DNA of 64,000 nucleotides from Alphaproteobacteria bacterium (GCA_017443235.1 JAFSOV010000018.1:11180-75179), one strand, 5' to 3'. Shown: positions 12,801 through 32,012, counted from the stretch's first letter. Numbers and translations are program-made. Notes: generated by a model not told the origin, from the sequence alone.

Positions 12801-13206
12801 TCAATAAAAACAGCCCACCTACAACAACGGCGGCACCCGCCGCCGCCAATGTCAATCCTTGGGCGGTGGATAGTCCACCGAACAGTCCACCCGTTCGCTC
12901 AGGCGAATTTTTGGTTTTATAATCTTTAATCTGTTTATCACATTGTGATGCGTCTGCACCGTACATTTGTAATATCTGGGCCGCGCGCAAATCATTGTTC
13001 ATCATTGCGGTGCAAACCAAAGACAACCCGGTATTATCGACATAGTTCACATTTGCGCCATTGTTCACCAAAATTTGAACCTGCTGAATATCTGCATTCT
13101 TCGCCGCCGCCAACAATTGCGCCGCAACAACAAATTCACTTGGCGCCGCAAAAGACGCGAATGGGGCGAAAAACACCGCAAAAACAAATAATCTTATGAA
13201 TTTCAT
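9826..13206 (-). CDS. Large exported protein: ankyrin-like N-terminus, hydrophobic segment, degenerate S8-peptidase-like region, probable C-terminal beta-barrel
   Basis: Start MKFIRL (13206) after GAGAGG; GANVNYVD ankyrin-like motif; CGVA..WCFAA...AGAAGVL...MTPQQI..LL.TA...FGYGVINL pattern; aromatic beta-strand C-terminus. Confidence 0.7.
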   Translation of the reverse strand: MKFIRLFVFAVFFAPFASFAAPSEFVVAAQLLAAAKNADIQQVQILVNNGANVNYVDNTGLSLVCTAMMNNDLRAAQILQMYGADASQCDKQIKDYKTKNSPERTGGLFGGLSTAQGLTLAAAGAAVVVGGLFLLTDVFDPDNGNDDTGGGSSSGGGSNSGGSSSSDGTAVFSSGLPYGPAMPNASMESSGYTDAFGVFYNQYITGADETQVENTPNYENFVLMNENQNYLLLMRGYSPLARGYLGMRTLRNLETNAPLSTSQYNLGGDPVEGGRPVNVALITANGINAADDTSLQEKFLIWTTNSGPSSLNNASNTMISSKYYNNTITYGSDTSSVSDDTVTEEAAFDLSGAGTAIHNTDATEWDDLLAKIVGGNMATAPNGDFVGFMPNGQMTIYRTGGGVDSAGNSIDYYNYTALVDAGMLSYAGDLSGGRSAVDVIANADVIEPLHEVGAGTISDILEAGASNYKAKFLNLIGESYGTANTTSPTTTNATSFFNNLGARYSPLTIFSTGGFKTDSDWSDAPLDATFENAAPLVYGNGNLEHLFMSVVAVGASTAGVTSITPNSDVNSNKYQLAQWAVGDGTDATYYKSRVCGVAGKGGDGIDPWCFAAVGVTDEMAVAAAAGAAGVLRSAFYYMTPQQIFMLLALTADGPFLNRLTSGTQLNETTLVTHLTDMYIMPESYQWRIDNGEDYLDVFKEVFGYGVINLERATTPGTNLYFYDGNSIASTSGNAYWRAAVNTGFRSSAALNLGRGAIDVAAYDMLESIDGSMWLPRVWKNSIAFGNDAGRRGLYMGDVLGDLRVRTARPDAVRFGNMSFGLARSERAYNDNMGGLDFMRLEYANENWKLGADYQRYLTNGESRFTGMANPILALASNAVTGDAHYNYGNWAFGARAFSGVITDEGLLANDPTISSNYEPMHLGAISGAQSELGWGNNRFGINTAFGAMHENNTVMGSYGSGLMAIGASNTNYVDIDAYFVPWETVKLRARATFAHTTPNTESGMLVQMSDFDSNAFAVSTDIGNFSFGASVPLAATNGDISYAYADYDIIDAGDGQYDLAVSNMGVRHIDMSPRSRELRFNASYHHNFGPFTDGAIGFIYRINPNNIDEYGNESIFMMKLSHAVGI

Positions 13207-13306
13207 GCGTCCTCTCTCTGTATCTTGTGGCATTCTAACACATATTTGAATTCCGTGTCTAGCAAAAAATAAACGGGATGAAAAATCATCCCGAATATTT
13301 TTTTTA

Positions 13307-13624
13307 TTATTTTGAGCGGTGGCGCAATTTATCAACAACCGGTTGCGGAATTATGCGTATACTGTCCGCCGGAATTTCAATCCAATCAAGTTCATTACCC
13401 ATATAAACCGGCGGATATTTTGGTTTCTTGCCCATATTCAATTTTTTTGCTTGTTCTGGGCGAACCAATGTCCACGGCTTTCTCATATCTTGCACATACG
13501 TACTATCGTTTTTTGCATTTGGTTTTTTTGGTTCTTGGGCATTTGCATTTTTCGCACCCACCATCAACACAAAAAACAGCATTGTCCCAGATATGCGTAC
13601 AAATAAACGATTTTGGCTTTGCAT
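13307..13624 (-). CDS. Hypothetical exported protein
   Basis: Signal-like N-terminus ending ANA; start moved to MQSQN. Confidence 0.55.
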   Translation of the reverse strand: MQSQNRLFVRISGTMLFFVLMVGAKNANAQEPKKPNAKNDSTYVQDMRKPWTLVRPEQAKKLNMGKKPKYPPVYMGNELDWIEIPADSIRIIPQPVVDKLRHRSK

Positions 13625-17262: not shown

Positions 17263-18135
17263 ATGCATTTTTATGCTCATTTTGCACGTGCGGATTACAA
17301 TCAACGGACCGGAAACTATATTCCGGCATGGCAAAAAATTGCGCCTGCATGCCGCGGAATAAAAATTTCAGATGCCGAATGTAATATGACAAACTTTGGA
17401 CAATATTCGCCGGCGTACCCAACAACAAATGAAGATTGGCGATTCGCAATGCGTGAATTACAGCCCGCGGGAAAATCTGTTTTAACCGTCACCGCCAGTG
17501 GCGATCAACCAATCGCATTTGCAATTTCCGGCGCGCGCGATATTGATACTTTTGACACCACATATTTTGCCAAGGTTATTATGGATATGAAAACATCCGC
17601 AATTCAAACAATGGACCGTAATCAATATTATTCTTTTGTGGGCGATTTAGATAAAATAAAATTTATATGCGACATCAATGGATACGACAAAATTAAAACC
17701 ATCTGTCCAAAATCCAGCATGCTGGCCGCCAAACAAATGCGTGGATGCCACATCTTTGGTCAAGGTTATAATTTGTATCCGGAATATATGCCGAACGATG
17801 CCGAATACGATACCGCAAAAAAAATTGTGACGGGACCAATGAATTTTATCTGGTCTGATATTGACGAATTGCATAACCAATTAAACAAAGAATACGATAT
17901 TATTTATCTGTCCAATATATTTGAATACTTTCACAGTCAAAAGAAAATTACAAACGTGTTGAACAACCTTAAACCATTTGTCAAGAACGGCGGTGAAATT
18001 ATGCTTTATATATCATGGGTTCAAACGCATATGTCTGAATCAATTGATGCGGCGGCACGTGATTGTGGTTGGGGAATGACAAAATCACACAACAAACAAA
18101 ACGCATTTATGTTGACCATGCAACGCACACGTTAA
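17263..18135 (+). CDS. SAM-dependent methyltransferase-like protein (DUF3419/BtaA-like)
   Basis: KSVLTVTASGDQ motif I-like; YDIIYLSNIFEY; LKPFVKNGG. Confidence 0.6.
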   Translation: MHFYAHFARADYNQRTGNYIPAWQKIAPACRGIKISDAECNMTNFGQYSPAYPTTNEDWRFAMRELQPAGKSVLTVTASGDQPIAFAISGARDIDTFDTTYFAKVIMDMKTSAIQTMDRNQYYSFVGDLDKIKFICDINGYDKIKTICPKSSMLAAKQMRGCHIFGQGYNLYPEYMPNDAEYDTAKKIVTGPMNFIWSDIDELHNQLNKEYDIIYLSNIFEYFHSQKKITNVLNNLKPFVKNGGEIMLYISWVQTHMSESIDAAARDCGWGMTKSHNKQNAFMLTMQRTR

Positions 18136-19148
18136 GCGTTTTGAATCATCTTTAACAATTCGTCACGGTCGGTCACAATTTCTATGCCATCCGCACGCCA
18201 TTTTTGGGACAATTCATCAAAGTCCATAATATTGTGTTCGCCCAAATATAAAACCGGATGCATTTCACCATTTGCTGCGCACGCATTGTTTAACGCCACA
18301 ATTGGCGAAGGCTTCTGCTTTCCCGCCGCAAACCAATCCGCATCATCGGCAACCCAAAAATCGTCATCGTCGTGAACCGCAATTATAAAATTGTCAACGG
18401 CGATTAAATCATTATCTGTGTGGGTGGCATTATGCCCCGCCCCAATCAAAAATTCGCACAAATCATCGACCGGCGATTTACCATCCGAATCGGCATCGTC
18501 TGCTTCATCAAAATTCACATCTGAAAAAACCGGAACACCATAATCCGTATCATCCAACGGCGCGACATCAAAATCGGTCGGCACCGGGAACGCCCCGCCC
18601 GACACATCACCACCCGACACATCGCCGACCGCGACTTCACCGCCCGCAACCACCGGGCTGGGTGTCGGCGCCGCATTTGGAATATCCACCGCACGCATTG
18701 CCATCGGTTTATTAAATACAGACATTTGCCGCGAACCATAATTTTTTTTGGCCCGCATAAAACTTTCGCGCATCTCGGGCGGAACACCGGGACGCAATTC
18801 CGGCAAAGTTTCTTGTTCGGTCACAATTGGTTGACGCGGGGTGTCTTCCACTTTCGGTGGCACGGGCGCAAGGCAATTCGGCAATGGAATTTTAATTGGC
18901 GCCGATTTATTTCGCATCGTCAAAACCGTGGTTGCAACATACAGTGGCACCGCCGCCAGAATTAAAATACCAAACACCAATCCCGGGAATCCGTGCAATT
19001 CAACCGCCCGCAACCGCACCCAATGCGCAACCGAAAAAATATTAAAGTTAAATAAACCGTACAAAATCACCCACATTAAAAACACATAGAAAACCGTCCA
19101 CGCAACCGCGCGCCCCAACCCATTACAAGAATCGAACAACTGTTTCAT
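18132..19148 (-). CDS. Hypothetical inner-membrane protein
   Basis: Two N-terminal TM helices, Pro-rich and acidic linker, globular C-terminus. Confidence 0.7.
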   Translation of the reverse strand: MKQLFDSCNGLGRAVAWTVFYVFLMWVILYGLFNFNIFSVAHWVRLRAVELHGFPGLVFGILILAAVPLYVATTVLTMRNKSAPIKIPLPNCLAPVPPKVEDTPRQPIVTEQETLPELRPGVPPEMRESFMRAKKNYGSRQMSVFNKPMAMRAVDIPNAAPTPSPVVAGGEVAVGDVSGGDVSGGAFPVPTDFDVAPLDDTDYGVPVFSDVNFDEADDADSDGKSPVDDLCEFLIGAGHNATHTDNDLIAVDNFIIAVHDDDDFWVADDADWFAAGKQKPSPIVALNNACAANGEMHPVLYLGEHNIMDFDELSQKWRADGIEIVTDRDELLKMIQNA

Positions 19149-19288: not shown

Positions 19289-21592
19289 ATGCAGAAATTG
19301 CTGAAAACATTGGAAAGGGGCATTGTTTGCCTTTCGGTGGTTGCATTTACAAGTGCGTGTTTCGGGGATACTTCGCCCGCACGCGGTGCCGCCACACAAA
19401 ATCGTGGCCGTGGGACGACCACCGCATCACGTATGCCATCTATACCGGTTTTGCCGGTCAGTGCCGTTGGTAATATGACCACAAGTAAAGAAGACCATAA
19501 CGTAAAACCAACACCGGATAATCCTACGCCGGACAACCCGACACCGGACAATCCTACACCGGATACGCCGGTGAACCCAAATCCGCCAACCCCGGGATGC
19601 CCGGACGGTGGGCCTGTCAATTCTGATTATACGGTTGAAACCTGTATGAACGACATTTTGGCGTGCGTAAATGGTGGCGCATTGCCAAACGGTATAAATT
19701 CTTTGTTTAACGAAGATTTGCGTAATTCCATTGTGAACGGTATGGGGCTGTGCCTGGCCCAGGTTGAACGCTGTGTCACGACCGTGCGCCGGAATTGCCA
19801 ATATGTGTACACATCATCTTCTGATGTATGGTTGGATTTCAATGCACGCAAGGTTCAACCCGAATACTATGCGTTTGTTTTGCGCAAAACGGGCCTGACC
19901 CCGACCCAGGCGGAAAATACATGTCTGTTGCTGGACCGCAACACATACGGATTGTCGTTTGACGCGGTGTCCGATGCCGACCGTGTGACGGGTGAATACA
20001 ACCAACAGGTTGGCGCGTATAACAGCGCCCTGAATGATTCTTTATCCAAGGCGAACCCATTGGGGGTAGAGGTGAACCACACCGGCATTGACGGCGAACG
20101 CGGGTACTATGCACGTTGGGATGCCGAAAAGGCCGAATGTTTATTGCGTGTTGCGGCATATAACAAAGACACACTGATTACGAACAGTTGGCTGTTCGGC
20201 GCGGTTGGTGACGACCGCACGGCCGAAGTATGGCAAGCCGCGGGTTCGACATTCACATGCAACAAAGATTTGTTCGACTTTTCGTTGATGCCAAAAACCA
20301 AGACAACCGCGGCGGTTGCAATTCCGGGCGGAACATTGTTGGGCGCGGGCATCGGCGCGTTGGCGGGCCACGGCGACCGTGACTTTGATTGCGCGAACGA
20401 AACATTGCGGAATCAATTGTTGAAAAAACTGCAAGACAATCAAAAGATTGGTAATTTGAACCAGTTTATTGAATCGCCTTTGTCCAGTGCCGATAGAACC
20501 ATGACCCAGGCCCAGTGCAACGAAATTGTCAAACTGTATGACCTGTGGCAAATGGGTAAAGAGGCAATCACACTGTGTGATTCTCAATCCGCAGAATTGA
20601 CAGTGATAATCGACCAGATTACCACAACAACGGTTGAAACATGCACAAAATCCGGCACAACCAATTGCGACACCAAAATCACAAAAGAACAATTTGATAA
20701 TTATTGCGATAAAAACGATTGCAAAGATTTCAAATTCACCGACATTCAAAACAGTCAAAAGAATTGTCGCTTTATCGATTTGAATCGTGCACGTCAATAT
20801 GGCTTGGATGTGTATTGCGAAGGCACCGGTGAAAACTGTGTCAACAAGGAAACGTTCCAACGCGACCTTGATATGTTGGCCAAGATATTTGGTTCAATCG
20901 ATATACTGGAAGGTCAAAAGTCAAATCGTTTGAAAACGACACTTATTGGCGCGGGAACCGGCGCGGCCGTTGGTGGAACCGCAACCGCGATTACGGCATT
21001 TGTTGAACGCAACAACATCAATTGCCGTGTGGCGGATGGCCTGGCGCGGGTCAGTTTCGGTAAATCATACACAATTGATCGTCTGCGTGACTTCTATGTC
21101 AAATGGGCGTTAAAGTTGCCACAAACATTGGCACCGACCGCGGTCGTCACGAACTGTGACAATTGGGAATTGACGTGTGCGATGTTCACCGATTTGGATG
21201 AATGCGCGGCGGCACAATTCAACTATCGCCCGGGCAATTTGTCCAGCACCACCTTGGTTCAAAATCCGTGCAAAGCATCCGGCAGTGCATGTATCACAAA
21301 CCTGGCCGTGGCCCAGGCAAACGGCGTATGTTTGGTGACACCGGAAAATCCGGACGAACCATCGGATAACGATTATCCAAATGTGAAGACCTGCAACGAA
21401 TGGAACAATGCATGCCAGGTTTATAACACCGACCCGACCAAATGTGCCGCGGCACGGGTTATATACACACCTGCATCAATGTTGGTATCATCCGCGTGTA
21501 AATTTAACACTGCGATAAACGAATGTCGTCCCAACGGGGTAAAAGTAAGAAAATATATGGCCCCGCTGGATTGTGAATTCCATGTAGATTAA
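19289..21592 (+). CDS. Cys-rich exported protein with PTPDN repeats and glycine-zipper-like segments
   Basis: AGGAGG RBS; signal-like N-terminus; GGTLLGAGIGALAG and GAGTGAAVGG segments; many Cys. Confidence 0.8.
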   Translation: MQKLLKTLERGIVCLSVVAFTSACFGDTSPARGAATQNRGRGTTTASRMPSIPVLPVSAVGNMTTSKEDHNVKPTPDNPTPDNPTPDNPTPDTPVNPNPPTPGCPDGGPVNSDYTVETCMNDILACVNGGALPNGINSLFNEDLRNSIVNGMGLCLAQVERCVTTVRRNCQYVYTSSSDVWLDFNARKVQPEYYAFVLRKTGLTPTQAENTCLLLDRNTYGLSFDAVSDADRVTGEYNQQVGAYNSALNDSLSKANPLGVEVNHTGIDGERGYYARWDAEKAECLLRVAAYNKDTLITNSWLFGAVGDDRTAEVWQAAGSTFTCNKDLFDFSLMPKTKTTAAVAIPGGTLLGAGIGALAGHGDRDFDCANETLRNQLLKKLQDNQKIGNLNQFIESPLSSADRTMTQAQCNEIVKLYDLWQMGKEAITLCDSQSAELTVIIDQITTTTVETCTKSGTTNCDTKITKEQFDNYCDKNDCKDFKFTDIQNSQKNCRFIDLNRARQYGLDVYCEGTGENCVNKETFQRDLDMLAKIFGSIDILEGQKSNRLKTTLIGAGTGAAVGGTATAITAFVERNNINCRVADGLARVSFGKSYTIDRLRDFYVKWALKLPQTLAPTAVVTNCDNWELTCAMFTDLDECAAAQFNYRPGNLSSTTLVQNPCKASGSACITNLAVAQANGVCLVTPENPDEPSDNDYPNVKTCNEWNNACQVYNTDPTKCAAARVIYTPASMLVSSACKFNTAINECRPNGVKVRKYMAPLDCEFHVD
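19507..19569 (+). repeat. 15-bp coding tandem repeat, (PTPDN)x3 plus a partial fourth
   Basis: CCGGATAATCCTACG / CCGGACAACCCGACA / CCGGACAATCCTACA. Confidence 0.8.
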
Positions 21593-21790
21593 AAAGTTTG
21601 GCTTGGTGTCCCTTAAACCGTCCCACGTGGACGGTTTTTTATTTCCACGTCATTAAACCCTGTCGCGACTGGGCGATAGCGCAGACGGAACTAACCACTA
21701 ACACTATCCACTAATCACTTTTTTAATTTTTATTCTTGGTTAAGGTGCCTTTTTATGATAAAATAGTTGGGATAATAGGGGGATTTTTAC

Positions 21791-24460
21791 ATGAGAAAAA
21801 TTCTGTTGATATTGGCATTTTTAATTACTGGATTCGGCGCAGACGCCGCACCACGCGCCGGCAATACAAACAATGCACGTACCGGACGTGGTGGTGACAC
21901 AACCACCCCAACACCCCCAACAACGTCGACCGCTGCCGCACGCGGACGCAGTGCCATACAAGCGACACCCAGCACCCAAACATCAACACGTAAAACTATA
22001 ACATCTTCTGCGGCACCTGGACGCACAACAACAGGCACAACAGGCACAACAACAGGCGCATCGGCAAACAGATCTGCCGTCGTATCGCGCGCTGCAAAAC
22101 AAAGCGTTATTGGCACCGGAACCAAGGTCGCGGCCGCGGCACAAAATACTGTGGTTGATGAAAAATGTTGGAATGGATTTATGGGATGCATGGATTCATT
22201 CTGTATGTTGGACAACGCGAACGGCGGACGCTGTATGTGCAGTGACAAAAACGCAGAATACGATTCGATACTCGCGGAAATTCAATCTTTGGACGAACAG
22301 AGTTATCAAATGGCAACCGTCGGCGTAGAACGCATTGAAATGGGTGACGATGCCGATGCGGTTATGAAAAAAACGCAAGAAATCACCAAAAGTATCGAAA
22401 AAGATTCCACGCAATCAAAACGCAAATCTTTGGATTTGTCGGCATGGAATTTGACAGAAATTGACTTTGATGATGGGGACATAGAAGACATTTTCTCAAT
22501 TGCATCGGACGGTTCATCCATCACGAACAAGACCGGCGACGCGTTGTATCGTGCGGCGGCGAAACTGTGCAACACGCAAATGCCGGAATGCAAATCGCAA
22601 TCAACAATGATGGAATTGATGTATAAACAACGCGTGCGTTCCGATTGCACGGCGTATGAAAACAGCCTGCGCCAGAGCCGCACGCAAAGCGCCCAAAAAT
22701 TGGCATCGGCCCAATCGGCTATGCGTGAGGCCGCACTGGAACAATACCGAAACGCGAACAAATATGACCTGGGGCAATGCACGGTTCAATTCAAACAGTG
22801 TATGCAAACAACCGGCGGATGCGGCGACGATTTCAGTGGTTGCGTCGATTATTCTGTGCGCGAAAGTTTGACCAATACTAAAACAGATGGCACAACAAAA
22901 TCTAAAACGACGACCATCAAAGGCACTTCATCCAAAATCACATTATTGGCGGCAACCTATGACGTGTTAGAGGCCAAAAAAGAATTATGTATGTCGGTCA
23001 CGCAACAATGCGTCAACGTCCGTGACCAGGTTTGGGATGCATTCCTGCGCGAAGTCGCGCCCCAGGTAAAGTCTGCGGAATTGATGGCGGAATCCAATAT
23101 GCGCACGTCGTGTATTTCAACTATATCAAATTGTTTCCAAAAGGCATGTAAAGACAATATGGACCCGAACGACCCGGATGGTTCGTACGATATGTGTTTA
23201 ACCAAACCCGATACTTTGCGCAGCGCATGCAAGGTCGAAATAGACCCGTGCGAGGGCGCAATACCGGAAATTATGACCTATGTCAAGGCACGCCTGGCAT
23301 CTATGCGCGTGGATTCGTGTACCAAGGAATTCAAACAATGTTTAACATCCGAAGATCGTTGCGGCGCGGATTATACACAATGTATCGGTCTGGACACAGA
23401 CACAATTGTAGAAATGTGCCCAACGGATAAATTACCCGGATGCAAATACGTTAAGGCGGATAATGACGATTATGTATACTCTAATAACACAGAAACAATT
23501 CGTGCAAACCTTGCACAAATCGCAACGGGCATATTCCTGAATATCGATAATAATATGCTTTCAACATGCCAGAAAGCGTTAGACACCGCGATGTTGCGCG
23601 TCTGTGGCAGTACCGAAAACTGCGACGAATTGACTTCCGATGGTGTGACAGGTGCGCGTTCATTGAAATATAATATTTGTACAGGTACCGGAAGCGATGA
23701 AAAATGTTACGCATCAGCGGACAGCATCCCCAGCGATATTTTGGAAGATTCGACCGTTGCGTGGAATATTGATATCACAGGCATGATTCCATGGGGTGAT
23801 TTATCATATTCAAATAACCAATATACAGGAACCGGATTGGATGACACAAACAAATCAGAAATTGACGCATTGTCAAATGCGGTAAAGAACGCCATTAATG
23901 CGATTAACTCTGACCCAGTTGTTCAATATTGTATGACTGGACGTAAATTCCAAGGATATAAAGAAATTCTAGGAACCGTTAAAGAAGAAGGTGATAATGT
24001 TACTATAGATGAAGATAAAGCACGTTTTCCAAATTTAACAAATCAAATACAAAACCTTATTTGGACATCTGTGTTAAGGTCTGCATATGAAAATTATGTT
24101 CAAAAATATGATGAGTTGACCCAACAAAAAATGAAAGATTCTGTAAAGATAGCAAGTCGTACAGATGAAGCCACCGCCAAAGCAACGGCCCGTGAAGCAT
24201 GTAATGCATGGCATAGTACAAAAGAAATAACCACAACAACCGGTGCGGATGGTAATACCACGGTTGACCTTTCAAATACAAATTATGCCAATGTGTTGGA
24301 TGCACTGCAACAACGTGAAACACACGCCGCATTTAATGAGATTACAGGCGAATGCATTATAACGACCAGATATCAAAAATGCGAATTAAGTTATGGATTT
24401 GATTGTTTGAAATACGGGGAATGGGTCTCAGAAACCACGACAATAAAGTTATTAGATTAA
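21791..24460 (+). CDS. Large Cys-rich exported protein; full-length form at the putative invertible locus
   Basis: GGGG RBS; signal peptide ending ADA; Thr-rich linker; CMDSFC and many CxxxC motifs. Residues from about 555 are homologous to the convergent ORF 24491-25939. Confidence 0.85.
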   Translation: MRKILLILAFLITGFGADAAPRAGNTNNARTGRGGDTTTPTPPTTSTAAARGRSAIQATPSTQTSTRKTITSSAAPGRTTTGTTGTTTGASANRSAVVSRAAKQSVIGTGTKVAAAAQNTVVDEKCWNGFMGCMDSFCMLDNANGGRCMCSDKNAEYDSILAEIQSLDEQSYQMATVGVERIEMGDDADAVMKKTQEITKSIEKDSTQSKRKSLDLSAWNLTEIDFDDGDIEDIFSIASDGSSITNKTGDALYRAAAKLCNTQMPECKSQSTMMELMYKQRVRSDCTAYENSLRQSRTQSAQKLASAQSAMREAALEQYRNANKYDLGQCTVQFKQCMQTTGGCGDDFSGCVDYSVRESLTNTKTDGTTKSKTTTIKGTSSKITLLAATYDVLEAKKELCMSVTQQCVNVRDQVWDAFLREVAPQVKSAELMAESNMRTSCISTISNCFQKACKDNMDPNDPDGSYDMCLTKPDTLRSACKVEIDPCEGAIPEIMTYVKARLASMRVDSCTKEFKQCLTSEDRCGADYTQCIGLDTDTIVEMCPTDKLPGCKYVKADNDDYVYSNNTETIRANLAQIATGIFLNIDNNMLSTCQKALDTAMLRVCGSTENCDELTSDGVTGARSLKYNICTGTGSDEKCYASADSIPSDILEDSTVAWNIDITGMIPWGDLSYSNNQYTGTGLDDTNKSEIDALSNAVKNAINAINSDPVVQYCMTGRKFQGYKEILGTVKEEGDNVTIDEDKARFPNLTNQIQNLIWTSVLRSAYENYVQKYDELTQQKMKDSVKIASRTDEATAKATAREACNAWHSTKEITTTTGADGNTTVDLSNTNYANVLDALQQRETHAAFNEITGECIITTRYQKCELSYGFDCLKYGEWVSETTTIKLLD
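23451..23628 (+). repeat. Inverted repeat, left copy (about 178 bp; partner 25764-25942)
   Basis: Near-identical in reverse complement to 25764-25942, with only a handful of mismatches. Confidence 0.95.
23453..23480 (+). other. dif/XerCD-like recombination site A
   Basis: AAGGCGGATAA-TGACGA-TTATGTATACT: 11-6-11 layout; arms match E. coli dif GGTGCGCATAA-TGTATA-TTATGTTAAAT at 7/11 and 8/11. Confidence 0.65.
23917..23987 (+). repeat. Internal inverted repeat (partner about 25264-25334)
   Basis: Both copies encode VVQYCMTGRKFQGYKEILGTVKE with near-identical DNA. Confidence 0.85.
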
Positions 24461-24462
24461 AC

Positions 24463-24492
24463 AAACTGCCCGCGAATGCGGGCAGTGTTTTT
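24463..24492. terminator. Probable bidirectional terminator between the two convergent cassette ORFs
   Basis: ACTGCCCGC-GAAT-GCGGGCAGT hairpin with A-rich and T-rich flanks. Confidence 0.75.
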
Positions 24493-25939
24493 AGTTTAGC
24501 AGGTTTATTGCCACCGGCGCTTCTTCCACTTCTTCATCCCATTCTTTACAGACGTTCTTTTTTGTTTTTGTACAATTTTGCGTTGTTTTTAATTTTACAC
24601 ATTCGCCAGTTTCGTATTTTGGAATTGTCACAATCTTTTCTTTGTAATTCCATTGTGCCGACACAGAACAACCTACCACTTTATTTCCATTTGCGTCCGT
24701 CGTATTTTCGCATTTATCAATACTTTCTCCACCACTATCCACCAGATCGTTTGTGGTGGATATTCCAATGCCAGCAGCGGCAGCAACAGAAGCACCGGCA
24801 ATAGAAGCGCCTACAATTCCGGCGGTTGAAAGCGTTGTCACTGTCGCTGTTCCAATTACAGTTGGGACAGCTATCTGGCTTCCAACAGCCATAAGAACTG
24901 GCACACTTACTGTTGAGGCAGCACCAAATGTAAATATTGTTGCCACAACCGCAGCAGCCACCAATAAGCTAAATGCAATCCATTTTCCGGCATTGCTTGT
25001 TTTTGGGGTATCTGTTGCGGGCAAACTGGCCGTGTCACCGTATGCGATACAGATTTCCACTGCTTTCGCCTTTGCATTTTCTTCATCGGCAATTTGGGCG
25101 CCTTTAACTTGATCTTGCATCATACGTTTGATTTCTTCATCATATTTTTCCATATAATTTTCACGCGCATTTTTTAATGCGGAATTAGCAATCATCTGGC
25201 GAATTTGGTTGGTTAAATTTGGGAATCGTGCTTTTGAAGAATCTAACACCGTGTTTGTACCACCTTCTTTAACGGTTCCTAGAATTTCTTTATATCCCTG
25301 AAATTTACGTCCGGTCATACAGTATTGAACAACTTGGTCGGATTCAATGGCATTAATCGCGTTTTCAACCGCAGATGTTAATGCTTTGATTTCTATGCCA
25401 TATACACGATCACGAATTATATCATAAGTTCCATTATCTCTTAATTCTTCTACGGTAACTCCTGTTGCCCTTGCAACATTTTGCACATATGTATCAATAG
25501 GGGTAAAATGAAATTTTGTTTGTATATTATCGGTAGTTTGGTCTTTATCTTCTTCATATGAGATTTCCCCCCAATACAAAATACCAGATAAATCCGCACT
25601 GAATAATTCTGTCTTTATAGCGTCTTTCGAAAAACCTTCAATAGAGTTTTTACAAATAGGCGCACTTAATAGATTAAAACTACCCTCAGAGTCTTTGCCA
25701 TTGGTATATTGGCAAATTCTGTACTCTAAACTTCTTGTTCCGGCGCCGTTGTCAACAACAATGTCGTCACAGTTTTCGGTACTGCCACAGACGCGCAACA
25801 TCGCGGTGTCTAACGCTTTCTGGCATGTTGAAAGCATATTATTATCGATATTCAAGAATATGCCTGTGGCGATTTGTGCAAGGTTTGCACGAATTGTTTC
25901 TGTGTTATTATAGTATACATAATCGTCATTATGCGCCAT
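24491..25939 (-). CDS. Alternative (probably silent) C-terminal cassette for the 21791 protein
   Basis: No signal peptide. Begins inside the dif-like site. First ~57 aa nearly identical to aa ~555-612 of the convergent gene. Carries hydrophobic helices (WIAFSLLVAAAVVATIFTFG; GIVGASIAGASVAAAAGIG). Confidence 0.8.
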   Translation of the reverse strand: MAHNDDYVYYNNTETIRANLAQIATGIFLNIDNNMLSTCQKALDTAMLRVCGSTENCDDIVVDNGAGTRSLEYRICQYTNGKDSEGSFNLLSAPICKNSIEGFSKDAIKTELFSADLSGILYWGEISYEEDKDQTTDNIQTKFHFTPIDTYVQNVARATGVTVEELRDNGTYDIIRDRVYGIEIKALTSAVENAINAIESDQVVQYCMTGRKFQGYKEILGTVKEGGTNTVLDSSKARFPNLTNQIRQMIANSALKNARENYMEKYDEEIKRMMQDQVKGAQIADEENAKAKAVEICIAYGDTASLPATDTPKTSNAGKWIAFSLLVAAAVVATIFTFGAASTVSVPVLMAVGSQIAVPTVIGTATVTTLSTAGIVGASIAGASVAAAAGIGISTTNDLVDSGGESIDKCENTTDANGNKVVGCSVSAQWNYKEKIVTIPKYETGECVKLKTTQNCTKTKKNVCKEWDEEVEEAPVAINLLN

Positions 25940-25942
25940 TAA
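25764..25942 (-). repeat. Inverted repeat, right copy
   Basis: Reverse complement matches 23451-23628. Confidence 0.95.
25912..25939 (-). other. dif/XerCD-like recombination site B
   Basis: Minus strand ATGGCGCATAA-TGACGA-TTATGTATACT; 8/11 and 8/11 match to E. coli dif arms; same 6-bp core as site A. Confidence 0.7.
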
Positions 25943-26418
25943 TTCCCCTTCAGCTCTGCTGAAGGGGGGGACCGCGGGACGCGGTGGGGTAGTTGCAAGT
26001 TCTCCTCCACCGGAGGAGTACGGCCCAGCGGGCCGGGAGGTGGGGGTCTCTGTCGCGCCGCAGCCTTGGCGCTTGCATCACGAAGTTTTAACGAAGTGGC
26101 GCAGGCGGACCTGTCCACCGAAGCGCAACGCGCGAAGGCGGATGGGGGCATAAAAAATGATGCTTTTGTGATTTTTACCCCCACCCCGTCGCCGTTCGGC
26201 GCCACCCCTCCGATTATCACCCACAAAATTTTTTCAAATTTTGTGGGGCCCGATGGAGGGGAACTTTCACCCCACCCCTCCGTGAATCACCCAAAAAATG
26301 CTGTGCATTTTTCGGGGACCGATGGAGGGGAACTAAAAACGCGGGGCATTTGCCCCGCGCACTAATAACTACCCCACCACCGCTGGTGGTCCCCCCCTTC
26401 GGTATCCGAAGGGGAATT
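25942..26418. repeat. Cluster of palindromic REP-like elements from several families, partly nested
   Basis: TCCCCTTC-N-GAAGGGGGGGACC-N-GGTGGGGTAG at 25943-25992 and inverted at 26368-26417; CCCCTCC..GGAGGGG variants and CCGAAG..GAAGGCGGA-type units between them. Confidence 0.85.
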
Positions 26419-26423
26419 ATCAC

Positions 26424-26993
26424 TTACTTTCCTGTGGCGCGACGTTTTACCGCAACGGTCTTTTTTGCCGCCGTGGCTTTTTTTGCCGCCGGTTCCTTTG
26501 TTGCGACTTTTTTTGCTGTCGCTTTTTCGGCCTTTAGCGCCTTTTCTACTTTCTTGGCATCGGTGGCAACCGCTTCGTCGGTCTTGGCCGCCGCAACTTC
26601 TGCCTTTGGTGCCGCCTTTTTCGCGTTCACGTCACGATCAACAAATTCGATAATCGCCATAGGCGCCGCATCACCATAACGGAAACCGGCCTTTAACACG
26701 CGGGTATATCCCCCCGGACGTTTGGCATAGCGCGGTCCCAACACCGTGAACAACTTTTTTACGGTCGCCGCAGACGCGTTGCCCAATTCAGACGCAACCA
26801 ACCGGCGATTGGCGACGGTATCAACCTTGGCACGGGTAACCAATTTTTCTACGACACTGCGCAGATCTTTGGCCTTTGGCAGGGTTGTTTTAATTTGTTC
26901 TTTTTCAATCAAGTTTTTCGCCAGACCAATAAACAAGGCCTTGCGTGCATTTGTATCGCGATTAAATGTGCGACCTGCTAATCTGTGTCTCAT
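26424..26993 (-). CDS. rplQ: 50S ribosomal protein L17 with Ala/Lys-rich C-terminal extension
   Basis: MRHR..., [30 protein letters not shown]. Confidence 0.97.
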
Positions 26994-27262
26994 TGATTAC
27001 TCCTTTATTTTGTTTCCGCCCTGCCCCAACAACCGGGGTGGGATTCGACCAGATTTCGTGCCCCGGGGCGCGCCCCAGCAACACGCGTTTTTCTCTCTAC
27101 CCAAACTCCTTGCATATGCGCAAGAAAATGATTTTGACAATCCCTTGCGGTGGTGCACAAGAAAATTGTCAGAACGCGTCAGTTGGAAGGGTTTGACGGT
27201 TCGCGGTGTAGTAGCCCTACATAAGAACCGGCAAACCCAACAATGGGCGCGTTATCACAATT

Positions 27263-28291
27263 TTATTTATAGGGGTCTTCATACTTCTTGGCCAACTCCG
27301 CAATATTTTCTGGTGGCCAACCCGGAACTTCCATCCCCAGGCCCAGGCCCATTGCTTCCAGTTGGATTTTAATTTCGTTCAACGATTTGCGTCCAAAGTT
27401 CGGGGTCTTTAACATATCGGCCTCGGTCTTTTGGACCAATTCGCCCAACCAATTGATTTTGTCGTTTTTCAAACAGTTGTTTGCACGAACAGACAATTCC
27501 AATTCATCAACACGTTTCAACAACTTTGGATCGAATTGCAACGCGTCTTTGGCGGCCTCTTCTTCGGTCGGCGCACTGATTTGTGCCGGATCTTCAAAGT
27601 TGATGAACACGGTCAATTGATCGGTCAAAATGCGTGCCGCAAATGCGATTGCGTCTTCGGGCGTGACACTGCCATTTGTTTTGACGGTCAATTCCAATTT
27701 ATCATAATCGGTCGATTGGCCAACACGCGTTTCCGAAACATTCGACGCCACATTCAAAATCGGCGAGAAAATCGAGTCAACCGGAATCACACCCAACGGC
27801 AAACCGTCGGCATGCGCGGTCGCCGGAACATAACCACGACCCGTACCCAGTGTGATTTCCATATCGAATTGTGCGCCCTTGTCCAATGTGCAAATTTCTG
27901 CATCCGGATTCATAATTTCAATTGCAGACGACGTTTCAATCATACCCGCCTTGACAACCGCAGGCCCCGTCACGTGCAACGATGCCTTGTGCTGGCCTTC
28001 GCTGTTTGCCTTGAAATAAACCCCTTTCAGGTTCAGCAAGATATCGGCAACGTCTTCATGAACGCCCTGGATACTGGAAAATTCGTGTTGAACACCGTCA
28101 ATTTTTACATACAACGGCGCGCATCCCTGCAGCGACGATAGCAACACGCGACGCAGCGCGGTCCCGAGTGTCAAACCGAAACCCTTTTCCAACGGTTCCG
28201 CGACCAATGTCGCCATATTCGGATTGTGTTCATCGGCTGTGATATTCAGTTTTTTTGGCTTGATTAAAGTCATCCAATTTTTTTCAATCAT
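27263..28291 (-). CDS. rpoA: RNA polymerase alpha subunit
   Basis: [41 protein letters not shown]. Confidence 0.98.
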
Positions 28292-28361: not shown

Positions 28362-28390
28362 ATTTTATAGCGTTTTTTCCGAAAAGTCAA
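28362..28390 (-). promoter_or_regulatory. Sigma70-type promoter for rpoA
   Basis: TTGACT-17 bp-TAAAAT on the minus strand. Confidence 0.65.
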
Positions 28391-28396
28391 GCATAA

Positions 28397-28675
28397 TCCC
28401 CTTCACATTCCCGGGCCCCGAAAAATACGAAAGTATTTTTTGGGTGGGTTTGAAGTGGGGGACACGGTGGGGTAGTAAGTCCCCTTCACATTGTGAAGGG
28501 GGGGACCGGCGGAGCCGGTGGGGTAGTAAGTCCCCTTCACATTGTGAAGGGGGGGACCGCGGGACGCGGTGGGGTAGAACCGGGCGCGTATGCGCACCCG
28601 TGCAAAGCACGGGGCAACTACCCCCCGGCACGCTGTGCCGTACCCCTTCTTAATAAGAAGGGGAATTCGCGACGG
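28397..28675. repeat. REP-like cluster: three direct copies and one inverted copy
   Basis: TCCCCTTCACATTGTGAAGGGGGGGACC..GGTGGGGTAG at ~28397 (interrupted), 28479 and 28530; inverted copy at 28617-28665. Confidence 0.9.
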
Positions 28676-29276: not shown

Positions 29277-30008
29277 TTAATATCGCCCCCACCGCGCCTG
29301 GGCATTCTGTCTATCAAAATCCGATTTTGCGCCCCTAATTTTTAATTGCAAATTTTTGACACACGACTGTATGTCCGTTTTATTCATACTACTTACCCTG
29401 GATTTACTGCAAACCGCCTCCAAACAATTAGTGTTCGTTCCACACATATCATAGCCTTTCATAATCGCCAAATCATTATCTAACTGTTTTCTGGCATTGG
29501 TTATATCTTTTTCTGCGGCTGATGAAATTTTAGATAAATTCCGTGCCACACAATCATAGGCGTTTTCTTGACTTACCGCATAGCAATCTTCGGCATTCGC
29601 CAATCCATTGTTGTTATACGAACCGGATGCACCGCCGCCGGAATTGCCGGATGCGGAATTACCGGTCAGGACCTCGATTTTACTGGTCAAGACGGCCTTT
29701 TCTAACTGGGTTTTGAAACGTTTAATAATGGCGTTCAGCGCATCATATTGTTCTTTTAACTGTTGCGCGATTACGGTAGATTTCAACGCAATAACTTCAT
29801 TCATATATGCAATATCTTCCGCATTTGTCGGATTTGCCGGCAAACCATCAGCCTTAAACGCTACATTATGCGCATGCGTTGAGCACAATGCAAAAGCCGG
29901 ATTGAATACAGCACATTCTGCATCAACCGTAGTAGCATGCGCAACAACCGGCGTCCAAAACATTAACACTCCAAATATAACAGCAAAAATTTTTCCCTTA
30001 TATTCCAC
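29277..30008 (-). CDS. Cys-containing exported helical protein
   Basis: GTG start after GGGG; signal peptide ending AHA; coiled-coil segments. Confidence 0.75.
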   Translation of the reverse strand: MEYKGKIFAVIFGVLMFWTPVVAHATTVDAECAVFNPAFALCSTHAHNVAFKADGLPANPTNAEDIAYMNEVIALKSTVIAQQLKEQYDALNAIIKRFKTQLEKAVLTSKIEVLTGNSASGNSGGGASGSYNNNGLANAEDCYAVSQENAYDCVARNLSKISSAAEKDITNARKQLDNDLAIMKGYDMCGTNTNCLEAVCSKSRVSSMNKTDIQSCVKNLQLKIRGAKSDFDRQNAQARWGRY

Positions 30009-31887
30009 TAATACCCCCGCTAATATTTATAATGTCTTTGACATTTTTTTGGAAAAATGAATTTGATGATTCAATATCAACCTGACATTTCGGCGTTGCG
30101 TAAATATCCCATTTACATCCATCCTTACACAAACTAGGAATCGTGATGTTATAACACTTCACCTCTGCGACCGCGGAATTTCTAAGCATTTCCGCTTCTT
30201 CCTCACCAATATTAGAACCAACTTTGTTTGATATAAATGTATTCGCCCATGTTTGCCCAGTAGTAATTTTAGTATCAAACTTAGGTAATTCAATATTTGT
30301 ACCCTCAATATCAGGCAACCTGTCTTCATTCGTATAACATAACACATCCGTCGCCGTACCATTGCTTGAAGTTTTGGTCGGCAATTTGCGCGAATCTACC
30401 GTTCGGGCCAATATATCGTATTGTGGCGACCCTTGGGTGACCGCACATCTGTCCAACCAACATGCCTTTTCTGGTTTGCCATCCAAAACAAATTTACCGC
30501 CATCCATTTTACCACGACACGACCGCGAATCTTGGTTTACCAACCGGCGCAGGTTATCGATATCCAACGTTGCCTCTTTCTTCATTCCACGGAACAACGA
30601 TATATCCATAATAACATCGGATGCACATGCAACCTGGGTCGAACCGGTCATACCCGTATTCGCATCAATCCATTCGCGCCATACGGTATCTTTTTCCGTT
30701 AATGTATCAACCAAACGACAATGCGGTTGATTTTTTGATACTTTACCCGTCGCATCATCTGTTTTAACACGATAATAACAACCTTCATCATTTTTTGTAT
30801 CATTACATACACAATCAGCATCTTTTTTCGGATTGCATGCACTGCACATATATTTACCCCAAATGTTGCAAGAATTAGACAACAACATTATCACGTCGTT
30901 GACATCTATACCCAATGTCATGGCCAACATCAACGCGTCATAGACGTTTTCCACCACGTTTTCATACGGGTCAAAGAATTCATTTGCCAAATCTTTGAAT
31001 TTTTTCACGCGCTTTGGCCCCGTGCAGTTCGTCGCCGACGAGTCACAGCCCGCATATTCCAAAACCGCATCTAATTTAGTTTTCAAATCTTTCATTGCGG
31101 TCATTGCGTCTTCAATCGCGGTTTCGATTTTACCGCCCATTTGTTCGCGTACCAAAATATCGGCACTGATTCCGTTTTTCGCCGCCAATTGTTCCGCGAC
31201 ACCTAACCCCTCCAGTCCCGCAATCACCGCCCCCGTATCACCGGTCGATTGTGCTGCGGACACGTTTGCCATAGAATTGCGTTGTTCCGCCAATGCGCTT
31301 TGAATCTGGGCATTTTGCGATTCGGTCTGTGCCGCCATTTGTTGTTGCATTGCGGACATAGATTCCGCCATTTGTTCCTGCATTGCCGCCATTTGCGCCT
31401 GCATCTGTTGCATCTGGGCATTGCTTTGCGCCGCGGCGGCGGCGGATGCATCGGCCTGGGCCTGCGCCTGGGCCTGGGCGATTGCAACGGCATTTGCCTG
31501 CTCTTGGACCTTGGACGTAGATTGCGCAACAATTTGCGCGGTTATATATTCAATTAAATCGTCACCGTGTTTCTTGCACGAATTATTCGAATTCACGCAA
31601 CCCGCAACAATAGAACGCGCAACCGATACATCGGTACAGCCCGAACCACACTTTGGCGATGCACACCGCAAAATCACGGCGTTACAATTGCCAAAATTCG
31701 CCTCGGCCGCGGTCTGCGACATTCCGCCACGTCCGGTCATCAAAGTGTTCCATTGATTGTTGTTCGTTGAACCCGTACCGTGATATGCGGTCAAATTAGA
31801 CCCCGCCGTTGTGGCAACATTCGCCACCGCCGGCGTAATAAACGCGGCACACAAAACACCACACAAGAATTTCAAAGAAAAATTCAT
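29998..31887 (-). CDS. Cys-rich exported protein with Gln/Ala/Met-rich coiled coil
   Basis: Start moved to MNFSLKF (31887); signal peptide ending AVA; AQAQAQ...QMQQMQ segment; many Cys. Confidence 0.8.
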   Translation of the reverse strand: MNFSLKFLCGVLCAAFITPAVANVATTAGSNLTAYHGTGSTNNNQWNTLMTGRGGMSQTAAEANFGNCNAVILRCASPKCGSGCTDVSVARSIVAGCVNSNNSCKKHGDDLIEYITAQIVAQSTSKVQEQANAVAIAQAQAQAQADASAAAAAQSNAQMQQMQAQMAAMQEQMAESMSAMQQQMAAQTESQNAQIQSALAEQRNSMANVSAAQSTGDTGAVIAGLEGLGVAEQLAAKNGISADILVREQMGGKIETAIEDAMTAMKDLKTKLDAVLEYAGCDSSATNCTGPKRVKKFKDLANEFFDPYENVVENVYDALMLAMTLGIDVNDVIMLLSNSCNIWGKYMCSACNPKKDADCVCNDTKNDEGCYYRVKTDDATGKVSKNQPHCRLVDTLTEKDTVWREWIDANTGMTGSTQVACASDVIMDISLFRGMKKEATLDIDNLRRLVNQDSRSCRGKMDGGKFVLDGKPEKACWLDRCAVTQGSPQYDILARTVDSRKLPTKTSSNGTATDVLCYTNEDRLPDIEGTNIELPKFDTKITTGQTWANTFISNKVGSNIGEEEAEMLRNSAVAEVKCYNITIPSLCKDGCKWDIYATPKCQVDIESSNSFFQKNVKDIINISGGISGI

Positions 31888-32012
31888 CTCTCTTCTGTCT
31901 TTTGATTTTAACATAAAACACCGATGAATAAAAGAAAAATTTTTCATCAAACACAAAAAAACGCGGGGCATTTGCCCCGCGCACGAATCAAATCACACAA
32001 TCTATTAAAAAA

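Follow-up and report, generated by a model that had tools for sequence, protein, structure and literature searches.

The stretch of DNA analysed here (hereinafter the window) comprises 64,000 nucleotides (nt) of an Alphaproteobacteria bacterium (GCA_017443235.1 JAFSOV010000018.1:11180-75179; contig C15:11180-75179). The host genome, 985 kb in 18 contigs and 94% complete, is that of a Candidatus Enterousia, a ruminant-gut alphaproteobacterium with a genome of ~1 Mb. Near the centre of this study stand a gene for a secreted, cysteine-rich protein of 889 amino acids (aa) and a convergent, 5′-truncated open reading frame (ORF; hereinafter the cassette), which share an inverted repeat; the segment between the repeat arms inverts and thereby exchanges the C-terminal part of the protein (the tail) behind a constant N-terminal part (the head). 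Related loci were found in Candidatus Enterousia and Alphaproteobacteria metagenome-assembled genomes (MAGs) from cattle, yak, sheep, goat, buffalo and deer gut. Passages of PMC12306168 describe Enterousia (order Rs-D84) as an uncultured lineage, widespread in the gut of ruminants and of other animals, with genomes of ~0.75-1.0 Mb that lack a tricarboxylic acid cycle and a respiratory chain, and report little pseudogene load in the genus. The locus contains the following features.

21791..24460, plus strand: secreted cysteine-rich gene of 889 aa, in the assembled state (ORF call, hydrophobicity, cysteine count)
21791..23454, plus strand: constant part, residues 1 to ~554, promoter-proximal, fixed in place and joined to either tail (identity to relatives)
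23455..23628, plus strand: inverted-repeat arm A, in gene codons 555-613 (174 nt, 97%)
23460..23480, plus strand: crossover interval of arm A, a 21-nt identical stretch (residues of the public proteins P0098 and P0094)
23629..24457, plus strand: variable tail A, with no hydrophobic stretch, ending IKLLD (hydrophobicity, comparison)
24465..24486, no strand assigned: bidirectional terminator-like hairpin between the two stops (9-bp stem, 7 G-C pairs, T-runs on both strands)
24491..25939, minus strand: 5′-truncated cassette, an open frame of 482 aa with tail B, ending INLLN (ORF call)
25764..25937, minus strand: inverted-repeat arm B, cassette codons 1-58 (repeat search)
25912..25932, minus strand: crossover interval of arm B, counterpart of 23460-23480 (P0098 and P0094 residues)
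25945..25967, minus strand: hairpin with a 9-bp stem just upstream of the cassette ATG, belonging to a GC-rich repeat block (sequence reading)
26339..26360, minus strand: terminator-like hairpin after rplQ (9-bp stem, 8 G-C pairs, T-run), predicted to separate the cassette from rpoA-rplQ read-through

An earlier reading of this DNA, made from its letters alone (hereinafter the sequence-only reading), had proposed that gene and cassette share an inverted repeat in the same reading frame, and both points held. The arms (23455-23628 and 25764-25937) are 97% complementary over 174 nt (184 nt and 95.7% by blastn on the genome) and encode KADNDDYVYS in the gene and MAHNDDYVYY in the minus-strand ORF; the arm pair is the sole match of the 178-nt repeat stretch, besides itself, in the 985-kb genome. 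Also as proposed, the ATG of the minus-strand ORF (25939-25937) is placed at the outer edge of the homology, its product is devoid of an N-terminal hydrophobic segment and has hydrophobic stretches at residues 317-362 and 373-394, and a terminator-like hairpin (24465-24486) was found between the two stops. The worry that the repeat itself might be an artefact was not borne out: contigs of four public runs (X1-X4), which contain 94-95% of sampled window words, match the window at 20500-23480, 23593-23983, 23958-25293 and 25268-25799 with zero letter differences.

The homology of the two C-terminal halves extends past the arms. Gene residues 556-816 and cassette residues 2-309 are 51% identical and hence paralogous, and a second, weaker inverted repeat (23857-23992 and 25259-25394) spans 136 nt at 84%. 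In a codon alignment, nucleotide identity between the two copies is 96% over codons 556-613, 47% over codons 614-700 and 68% over codons 701-800, and the arms share 61-72% nucleotide identity with the orthologues of the nearest species. That the arms are 96% identical, compared with 61-72% for the orthologues and 47% in the sequence immediately inside, goes beyond chance, and on these comparisons they are shown to evolve in concert. Six differences separate them (G/C, C/A, A/C, G/A, C/T and C/T), located at 23459 and 23481, as a pair around 23522-23525, and around 23537 and 23623; their identical stretches include runs of 21, 40 and 85 nt. The two differences used below as diagnostic letters are 23459, where the gene arm has G and the cassette arm C, and 23481, where they have C and A, respectively; single-nucleotide polymorphisms of this kind make crossover positions mappable directly from reads. 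A diversity-generating retroelement was considered and rejected, as the arm differences are not confined to adenines and both copies are coding and inverted; reverse transcriptase was not searched for.

The 889-aa protein starts with a signal-peptide-like hydrophobic segment (residues 3-21) and contains 36 cysteines, many of which are invariant over 56 homologues. A disordered, low-complexity stretch up to ~residue 120 is followed by a largely helical, cysteine-rich N-domain. In an AlphaFold2 model of moderate confidence (mean predicted local distance difference test score, pLDDT, 71.5; predicted template-modelling score, pTM, 0.47), the protein is composed mostly of long helices, and tail A ends in a predicted three-stranded sheet with strands within residues 841-886. 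The family is uncharacterised, as had been stated, with no Pfam, NCBIfam, PDB-sequence or Atlas relative: the ESM Atlas search returned unnamed clusters only, at template-modelling (TM) scores < 0.45, and the PDB profile search a single chance-level match (E = 0.26). All 24 genus genomes searched have family matches (4-15 each, about 13 per genome), and 13 of 16 genomes searched from the order's other five families have weaker ones. Elsewhere in the host genome we found no other truncated cassette; the other family members there are full-length, at 22-36% identity. In many orthologues of the gene (L049, L051, L054-L062, L072 and L082), TTG appears to be the start codon, with a normal signal peptide after it; the window copy starts with ATG.

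Head and tails differ in how far they are conserved. Head residues 100-553 share 82-90% amino-acid identity with the nearest species; among the fetched loci, tail A finds its best match (41%) in the genome's own cassette, tail B reaches at most 50%, and nothing at E <= 1e-5 matches gene residues 800-889. Compared with four relatives, nucleotide identity is ~80-95% up to the repeat and falls to 51-59% in the two 90-nt windows that begin at 23411 and 23471, and the site of this drop is the outer edge of the repeat. The cassette is orthologous to the C-terminus of the single long ORFs of relatives (50% for L051 and L072, 57% for G094). Flipping the segment in silico yields, as had been predicted, a 1036-aa ORF, with hydrophobic windows at residues 871-948, and the relatives do carry the long form as one ORF, with which the flipped product is colinear over residues 1-1036 (64% to L051, for example).

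The flipped form is present in public assemblies. In an exact search of a 15-billion-protein collection, including 90% cluster members, the cluster of the cassette held P0098 (1036 aa, ENA; five contigs, the longest of 97,419 nt), which consists of gene residues 1-563 and cassette residues 10-482 with zero other change. Its residues 1-553 match the gene with 0 differences, its last 480 match the cassette apart from residue 557, and this residue, the sole difference from the in-silico flip, locates the crossover. The 90% cluster of the gene held P0094 (335 aa; five contigs, the longest of 97,419 nt), in which the cassette's MAH is followed by the C-terminal 332 residues of the gene; compared with the gene's last 335 residues, M and H alone differ, and both come from the flank of the cassette. 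P0098 and P0094 are evidently the two reciprocal products of one inversion, and with their presence in public assemblies the central proposal of the sequence-only reading, that the segment inverts and the C-terminus is swapped, is upheld. The crossover is bounded by D557 and Y564 in P0098 and by H3 and S10 in P0094.

The reference state is represented in the same collection by the 889-aa P0093 on three contigs (longest 573,462 nt) and by the 482-aa ORF on two (76,003 and 573,462 nt). P0095 (289 aa), called from tail A on a contig of 75,952 nt, may represent one more flipped case. P0100, the cassette on the 573-kb contig, carries the gene arm's S at residue 10, indicating that conversion does occur. 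A search for longer cassette-containing proteins returned nothing above 57% identity because the 1036-aa form was hidden in the cassette's own 90% cluster, and a scan of metagenome contigs with the cassette protein gave 57 pattern-matched stretches, none of them a relative.

Evidence from single runs was taken from Logan contigs (k = 31) of X1-X4. In X1-X3 the main head-side contig stops at 23480, pointing to a branch at 23481 that follows head-specific context, and a second contig joins the head-side G23459 to the cassette A23481, at depths of 11.3, 4 and 3.3 compared with 33.4, 19.9 and 9.8 for the main contig. These depths would fit 17-25% of cells carrying the flipped junction in the three runs. 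In X4, the G23459-A23481 junction is the sole form. No strand-changing joint is listed for the Logan contigs over 20500-27500; contigs built from 31-mers cannot cross the 40- and 85-nt identical stretches, so this null result is uninformative for or against inversion. The joints that are listed at 21719/26215 and 25992-26215 stem from dispersed GC-rich repeats.

The cassette search matched 65 of 121 genus genomes at E <= 1e-30. A gene with an inverted, 5′-truncated (head-less) cassette is carried by 11 species, intact cassettes of 435-563 codons are found in many species, and by this survey the same gene-plus-inverted-cassette design is shown to recur across the genus. Convergent pairs are resolved in G000 (the host genome), L062 and G098, and a divergent pair in G089. 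L062 has exactly the convergent design of the window: the first codons of its cassette are likewise MAHN, its arms show 93% identity over 97 nt, and an indel state unlike that of the window is common to both arms. The position of the arms varies among species (residues 451-543, 485-600 and 554-613).

In the divergent pair of G089, the 932-aa gene (minus strand) and the head-less cassette point outwards from a piece of 1.6 kb. This piece carries the promoter plus the N-terminal half, between the arms of a 352-nt, 100% identical inverted repeat. The alternative state of this locus is P0117, a 957-aa fusion with one difference from the gene in its first 601 residues and one from the cassette in its last 473, and the reciprocal product is P0104 (453 aa); P0117 and P0104 are each found on one 75,826-nt contig. 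Four further assemblies hold fusions of the G089 type, of 957-963 aa. Across these assemblies, both orientations, each with both reciprocal products, are shown in two species.

Outside G000, 26 of the 73 match rows are open frames of < 600 aa. Eighteen short frames were examined (G065 and G080 were left out of the evaluation); two lie inside contigs (G098 and G089), and the other 16 end at a contig end at the repeat position, a recurrent break in MAG assembly of the genus that the switch would explain. Five of the 16 are on stand-alone contigs of 2.6-3.3 kb with two convergent tail halves (G064, G022, G102, G073 and G099), which by their layout are the putative invertible segment of the window assembled alone; the G064 contig has a 279-nt terminal inverted repeat at 99.6% identity. 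An exact look-up of ten partial tail halves from the five short contigs found none in the protein collection. In G122, a 1629-bp contig carries the promoter and head only, and at the start of each of two contigs of >400 kb lies a tail half, the two having 127 identical nucleotides in common; when long forms of this species were sought with the G122 head, the best match reached 79% identity, too distant to serve as a test for the species. In G124, the ends of contigs carry two tail halves, with no head seen.

Of nine gene/cassette pairs, eight have a hydrophobic stretch in one tail and none in the other, and tandem full-length pairs elsewhere have the same order, anchor-less then anchored. The tandem forms of L030 (G003), L031 (G017) and L032 (G012) share direct repeats of 770-905 nt at 82-95% identity, and the repeat of G003, the one for which coordinates were checked, stops close to the same boundary of head and tail; the tandem heads seem to be kept alike by gene conversion, with the tails remaining distinct. 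In L072 a long-form gene lies in the opposite orientation to that of L049, in place between the same flanking genes on both sides; such an inversion would be the expected remnant of a head-flipping design after the loss of one tail.

We interpret the locus as a two-state DNA inversion switch in which a constant head is joined to either tail, a reading to which we assign a probability of about 75%. The fixed part would comprise promoter, signal peptide and the first ~555-563 codons of the secreted cysteine-rich protein, and the ~2.45-kb segment between the arms, containing the two convergent tail halves and the bidirectional terminator between them, would be flipped by reciprocal exchange between the arms. 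Fusion of the head in frame to tail A would give the 889-aa form with no hydrophobic stretch, and fusion to tail B a 1036-aa form with ~80 hydrophobic residues followed by a cysteine-containing end; in each case the unused tail would be left as a head-less cassette. The two states presumably differ in membrane anchoring. Of the alternation between soluble and membrane-anchored forms that the sequence-only reading had pictured, the swap of tails stands, and the anchoring, still presumed from the tails, gains strength from the eight of nine pairs. Flipping is presumably frequent enough for mixed populations, and we infer that the switch serves surface or host-interaction variation in a reduced-genome, probably partner-dependent organism.

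A wider picture is more tentative, and we hold it to be possible rather than probable. It sees a major secreted cysteine-rich protein under a genus-wide bistable switch without a recombinase of its own, which would have arisen from tandem anchor-less and anchored paralogues and would exist in two interchangeable designs, one flipping the tails and the other flipping promoter and head; released and anchored forms would control attachment to or action on the host or partner, and the gut would hold standing mixtures of both.

Several observations weigh against the two-state switch. The hints of mixtures within populations come from Logan contigs (k = 31), which cannot bridge the 40- and 85-nt identical stretches or tie the junction to either tail. 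The junction words in X1-X4 may reflect a short conversion tract and not the flipped state, the reciprocal arm-B junction is absent from the joints listed for run contigs, and the X4 contig carries the gene arm's letters at the next three markers (linkage over more than 31 nt is unreliable). The contigs that hold the two states may not be independent samples. The anchor-less tail is the expressed one in all three resolved convergent assemblies (the window, L062 and G098), suggesting that one state may dominate. The cassette has its own ATG, which is common to L062, and a Shine-Dalgarno-like stretch. Contig breaks by themselves are evidence of near-perfect repeats and not of inversion. The arms of G098 reach only 73% identity, and the full-length proteins that carry the tail of its cassette (96-97%) have another head (~52-55% to the G098 gene overall); the G098 cassette may be a stranded paralogue and not an active partner.

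The alternative that survives best, though we consider it unlikely, is that the inversion is real but is a rare, strain-level homologous rearrangement, with the head-less cassette as the by-product of a recombination hot-spot. It would accommodate the single state seen in each assembly, the lack of a dedicated recombinase nearby, the 82-95% identical stretches shared by tandem paralogues, the G098 cassette that resembles a stranded paralogue, and a locus that is otherwise rearranged (the gene in L072 versus L049; rpoA-rplQ in L054, L056, L058, L059, L061 and L062). It is difficult to reconcile with the zero amino-acid differences outside the junction over 1036 + 335 residues, which make the inversion very recent relative to mutation (as it also is in the second species), or with the occurrence of both kinds of junction word together in three runs. 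The pairing of an anchored with an anchor-less tail is moreover conserved in eight of nine pairs, and intact cassettes of 435-563 codons persist despite the little pseudogene load that the passages of PMC12306168 report.

Considerably less probable is that the minus-strand ORF is an independent gene with its own ATG, encoding a 482-aa protein without a signal peptide, and that recombination there is incidental. The earlier statement that the ORF has no clear ribosome-binding site is not right: GAAGGGG lies 5 nt before its ATG, as at other gene starts, and resembles the Shine-Dalgarno stretches of its neighbours (AGGGGGA, AAGGAGG and CAGGGG). The cassette of L062 has the same ATGGCGCATAAT start, and the NCBI and ENA gene callers list the 482-aa protein. 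Set against this, the Shine-Dalgarno-like stretch is half of a hairpin, GAAGGGG forming the 3′ arm of the 9-bp hairpin at 25945-25967; the minus strand shows no sigma-70-like site over 25940-26340, and a strong terminator-like hairpin follows rplQ; a cysteine-rich domain of ~310 residues would precede the hydrophobic stretches with no export signal; cassettes elsewhere begin at residues 451, 473, 485 and ~535, a variability at odds with a defined N-terminus; and the same tail is fused to the head in P0098. Least credible of all is an assembly artefact, a wrong orientation at a collapsed inverted repeat: segments between perfect inverted repeats are ambiguous in de Bruijn graphs and contigs of many relatives break exactly at the repeat, but a mis-join would be expected in the 85-nt stretch and would keep S564 (P0098 has Y564 and P0094 the matching S), the 21-nt stretch that holds the exchange falls short of any final assembly k-mer, the 31-mer contigs of four runs independently link G23459 to A23481, the window assembly has 141-nt contig-end overlaps and 141-mers linking arm markers to flanks, and the G089 reference state sits in a 697-kb contig of a two-contig genome.

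As to which enzyme would drive the two-state switch, we favour RecA-mediated homologous recombination across the long arms, to which we give an even chance; a site-specific recombinase encoded away from the locus and acting at the repeat's outer edge is somewhat less probable. Profile searches of the genome found no tyrosine, serine or IS110-type recombinase gene on C15, the contig of the window. PF00589 (tyrosine) has five matches in the genome, on C6, C7, C13 (two) and C14, and PF00239 (serine) six, on C4 (two), C7, C10, C13 and C18; PF01548 (the IS110-family DEDD domain, as in Piv-type systems) has 0 matches in the 94%-complete genome. There is one RecA gene, at C6:36204-36986. In G089, the nearest serine recombinase is > 490 kb from the locus (C1:1-17000). 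Unlinked small serine and several tyrosine recombinases are present in each of five other switch-bearing genomes, leaving room for an enzyme acting in trans.

Homologous recombination is favoured by the length of the arms (174 nt at 97%; 352 nt at 100% in G089; 279 nt at 99.6% in G064) together with their species-variable positions, and by the tandem paralogues, which are homogenised in the same manner (82-95% over 770-905 nt). It is likewise favoured by the synonymous sites: a conserved DNA site was not found in the repeat, where, over 56 genes, the conserved residues show synonymous-site codon identity at or slightly below the average of each amino acid; columns 556-569, within which the crossover interval falls, were too variable to score. 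Counting against it, the sole mapped crossover falls in the outermost 21 nt and not in the 85-nt stretch, which fits poorly with a simple RecA exchange and favours a site-specific enzyme; a Holliday junction migrating to the end of the homology before its resolution would also give crossovers at the edge. Both arms have a dyad, ATAAT-N4-ATTAT, in their crossover interval (three matches in the window versus 0.14 expected), and both L062 arms keep the ATAAT/ATTAT dyad with a different spacer; its presence in the crossover stretch and its retention in L062 would favour a site-specific enzyme. Elsewhere in the genome, ATAAT-N4-ATTATG has six matches, all single sites, one of them palindromic and counted on both strands.

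Outside the window, contig C4 of G000 carries a 383-nt inverted repeat at 91% identity (C4:54932-55311 and 70755-70377), which starts beside a 230-aa serine recombinase (C4:54326-54751) and ends beside a member of the cysteine-rich family (C4:70813-73398). This part of the genome (C4:54326-73398) may hold a second, 15-kb invertible region or a transposon.

Inversion systems that exchange protein parts are well known. The repeats of shufflons are ~19 bp and bound several segments, and the invertases Hin, Gin, Cin and Pin act on 26-bp dyad sites with a 2-bp crossover and an enhancer. The Mu G segment (Gin), the P1 C segment (Cin), the R64 shufflon (Rci) and the Moraxella pilin segment (Piv) each have the recombinase gene beside the segment and sites of ~19-34 bp. 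The window shares the geometry of these four, a constant N-terminal part outside and inverted alternative C-terminal parts inside; it differs from them in having no recombinase on the contig, arms of 174-352 nt and a position that varies by species. The label 'shufflon-type' of the sequence-only reading accordingly stands for the exchange of C-termini by inversion and not for membership: C-terminal exchange is found, but there is no recombinase on the contig, and hence no adjacent tyrosine recombinase of the R64 type, no short conserved site, and one 174-nt pair in place of several short-repeat segments. A small recombinase gene beside the segment, which marks serine invertases, is also missing. 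Long inverted homology and a recA gene, the hallmarks of RecA-dependent systems, are both present. None of the compared families' linked recombinases is found here, and no short conserved site was found in the repeat columns that could be scored.

In Campylobacter fetus, the promoter segment of sap lies between outward-facing homologues and inverts via long coding stretches in a recA-dependent manner. The likeness is to the divergent design of G089, G122 and G124 and to the lack of a linked recombinase; in sap, a 5′ homology box leads to the exchange of whole proteins, whereas here the repeat lies ~60% into the gene and the tail only is exchanged.

The pneumococcal hsdS locus (cod/SpnD39III) is a further relative in design. 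Passages of PMC7096588 and PMC4948785 describe an expressed gene with silent, inverted partial genes as donors, and those of PMC7096588 describe coding inverted repeats, including ones of 85 and 298 bp, with inversion at long repeats occurring at low frequency without a dedicated recombinase. The product there is a restriction-modification specificity subunit, and the system has its own tyrosine recombinase PsrA, a specific 15-bp site and six states (same passages of PMC7096588). Silent partial genes and long coding inverted repeats are thus common to hsdS, as far as these passages describe it, and the window; the secreted cysteine-rich product, the lack of a linked recombinase and the two states are particular to the latter. 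In Ureaplasma parvum, according to passages of PMC3047005, inversion at repeats in a surface-protein gene (MBA/UU172) alternates expression and can build chimeras. The host is, as here, a reduced-genome, host-associated bacterium, and a conserved N-terminal part is combined with alternative downstream parts; unlike here, the passages describe short specific repeats, proposed Xer-type tyrosine recombinases and unrelated lipoproteins of a Mollicute.

Intragenic invertons, in which inversion recodes part of a protein, were found in gut bacteria from sequence data, as passages of PMC10028968 report. Those described there lie within one gene, whereas the segment here spans the 3′ part of the gene, a terminator and a separate head-less cassette. 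An intragenic inverton was rejected for the window, arm B lying in a separate convergent frame past the gene's stop and the terminator.

We found no published description of the Enterousia tail switch, and the passages of PMC12306168 that were covered mention neither inversion nor phase variation nor cysteine. A tail-swapping switch would mark the family as a variable outward interface and give a first handle on the interactions of Enterousia. It would also add a well-documented alphaproteobacterial case of phase variation, in which the C-terminus is exchanged without a linked recombinase, and place two different switch geometries within one gene family.

GC-rich, structured repeat blocks at 25940-26420, 28365-28650 and ~21690-21724 flank the gene pair and rpoA-rplQ. 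They consist of short hairpins of G-runs and C-runs, reach a contig depth 5-9x that of the neighbouring stretch, and have copies at 90-98% identity on many contigs and at contig ends of the host genome; they look like a dispersed family of repetitive extragenic palindromic (REP)-like elements. The rpoA-rplQ pair (26424-28291) is an isolated two-gene block whose orientation relative to its neighbours varies among species: minus in the window, L049, L050 and L051, plus in L054, L056, L058, L059, L061 and L062.

A 338-aa membrane protein with no family match (18132-19148, minus strand) adjoins the locus in 15 of the 18 related loci mapped, and in G098 the cassette frame begins 11 nt past the end of the open frame of this protein. 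The 1170-aa ORF at 9826-13338 (minus strand) has weak ankyrin-repeat matches that fall below the Pfam cut-offs. Further secreted cysteine-rich ORFs lie nearby at 19289-21592 (767 aa), 29998-31971 (657 aa) and 29277-30008 (243 aa), all with no family match. The 767-aa neighbour shares 60-91% identity across most of the related species mapped (44-47% in G044, G089 and G098) and is far less variable than the tails of the switch gene.

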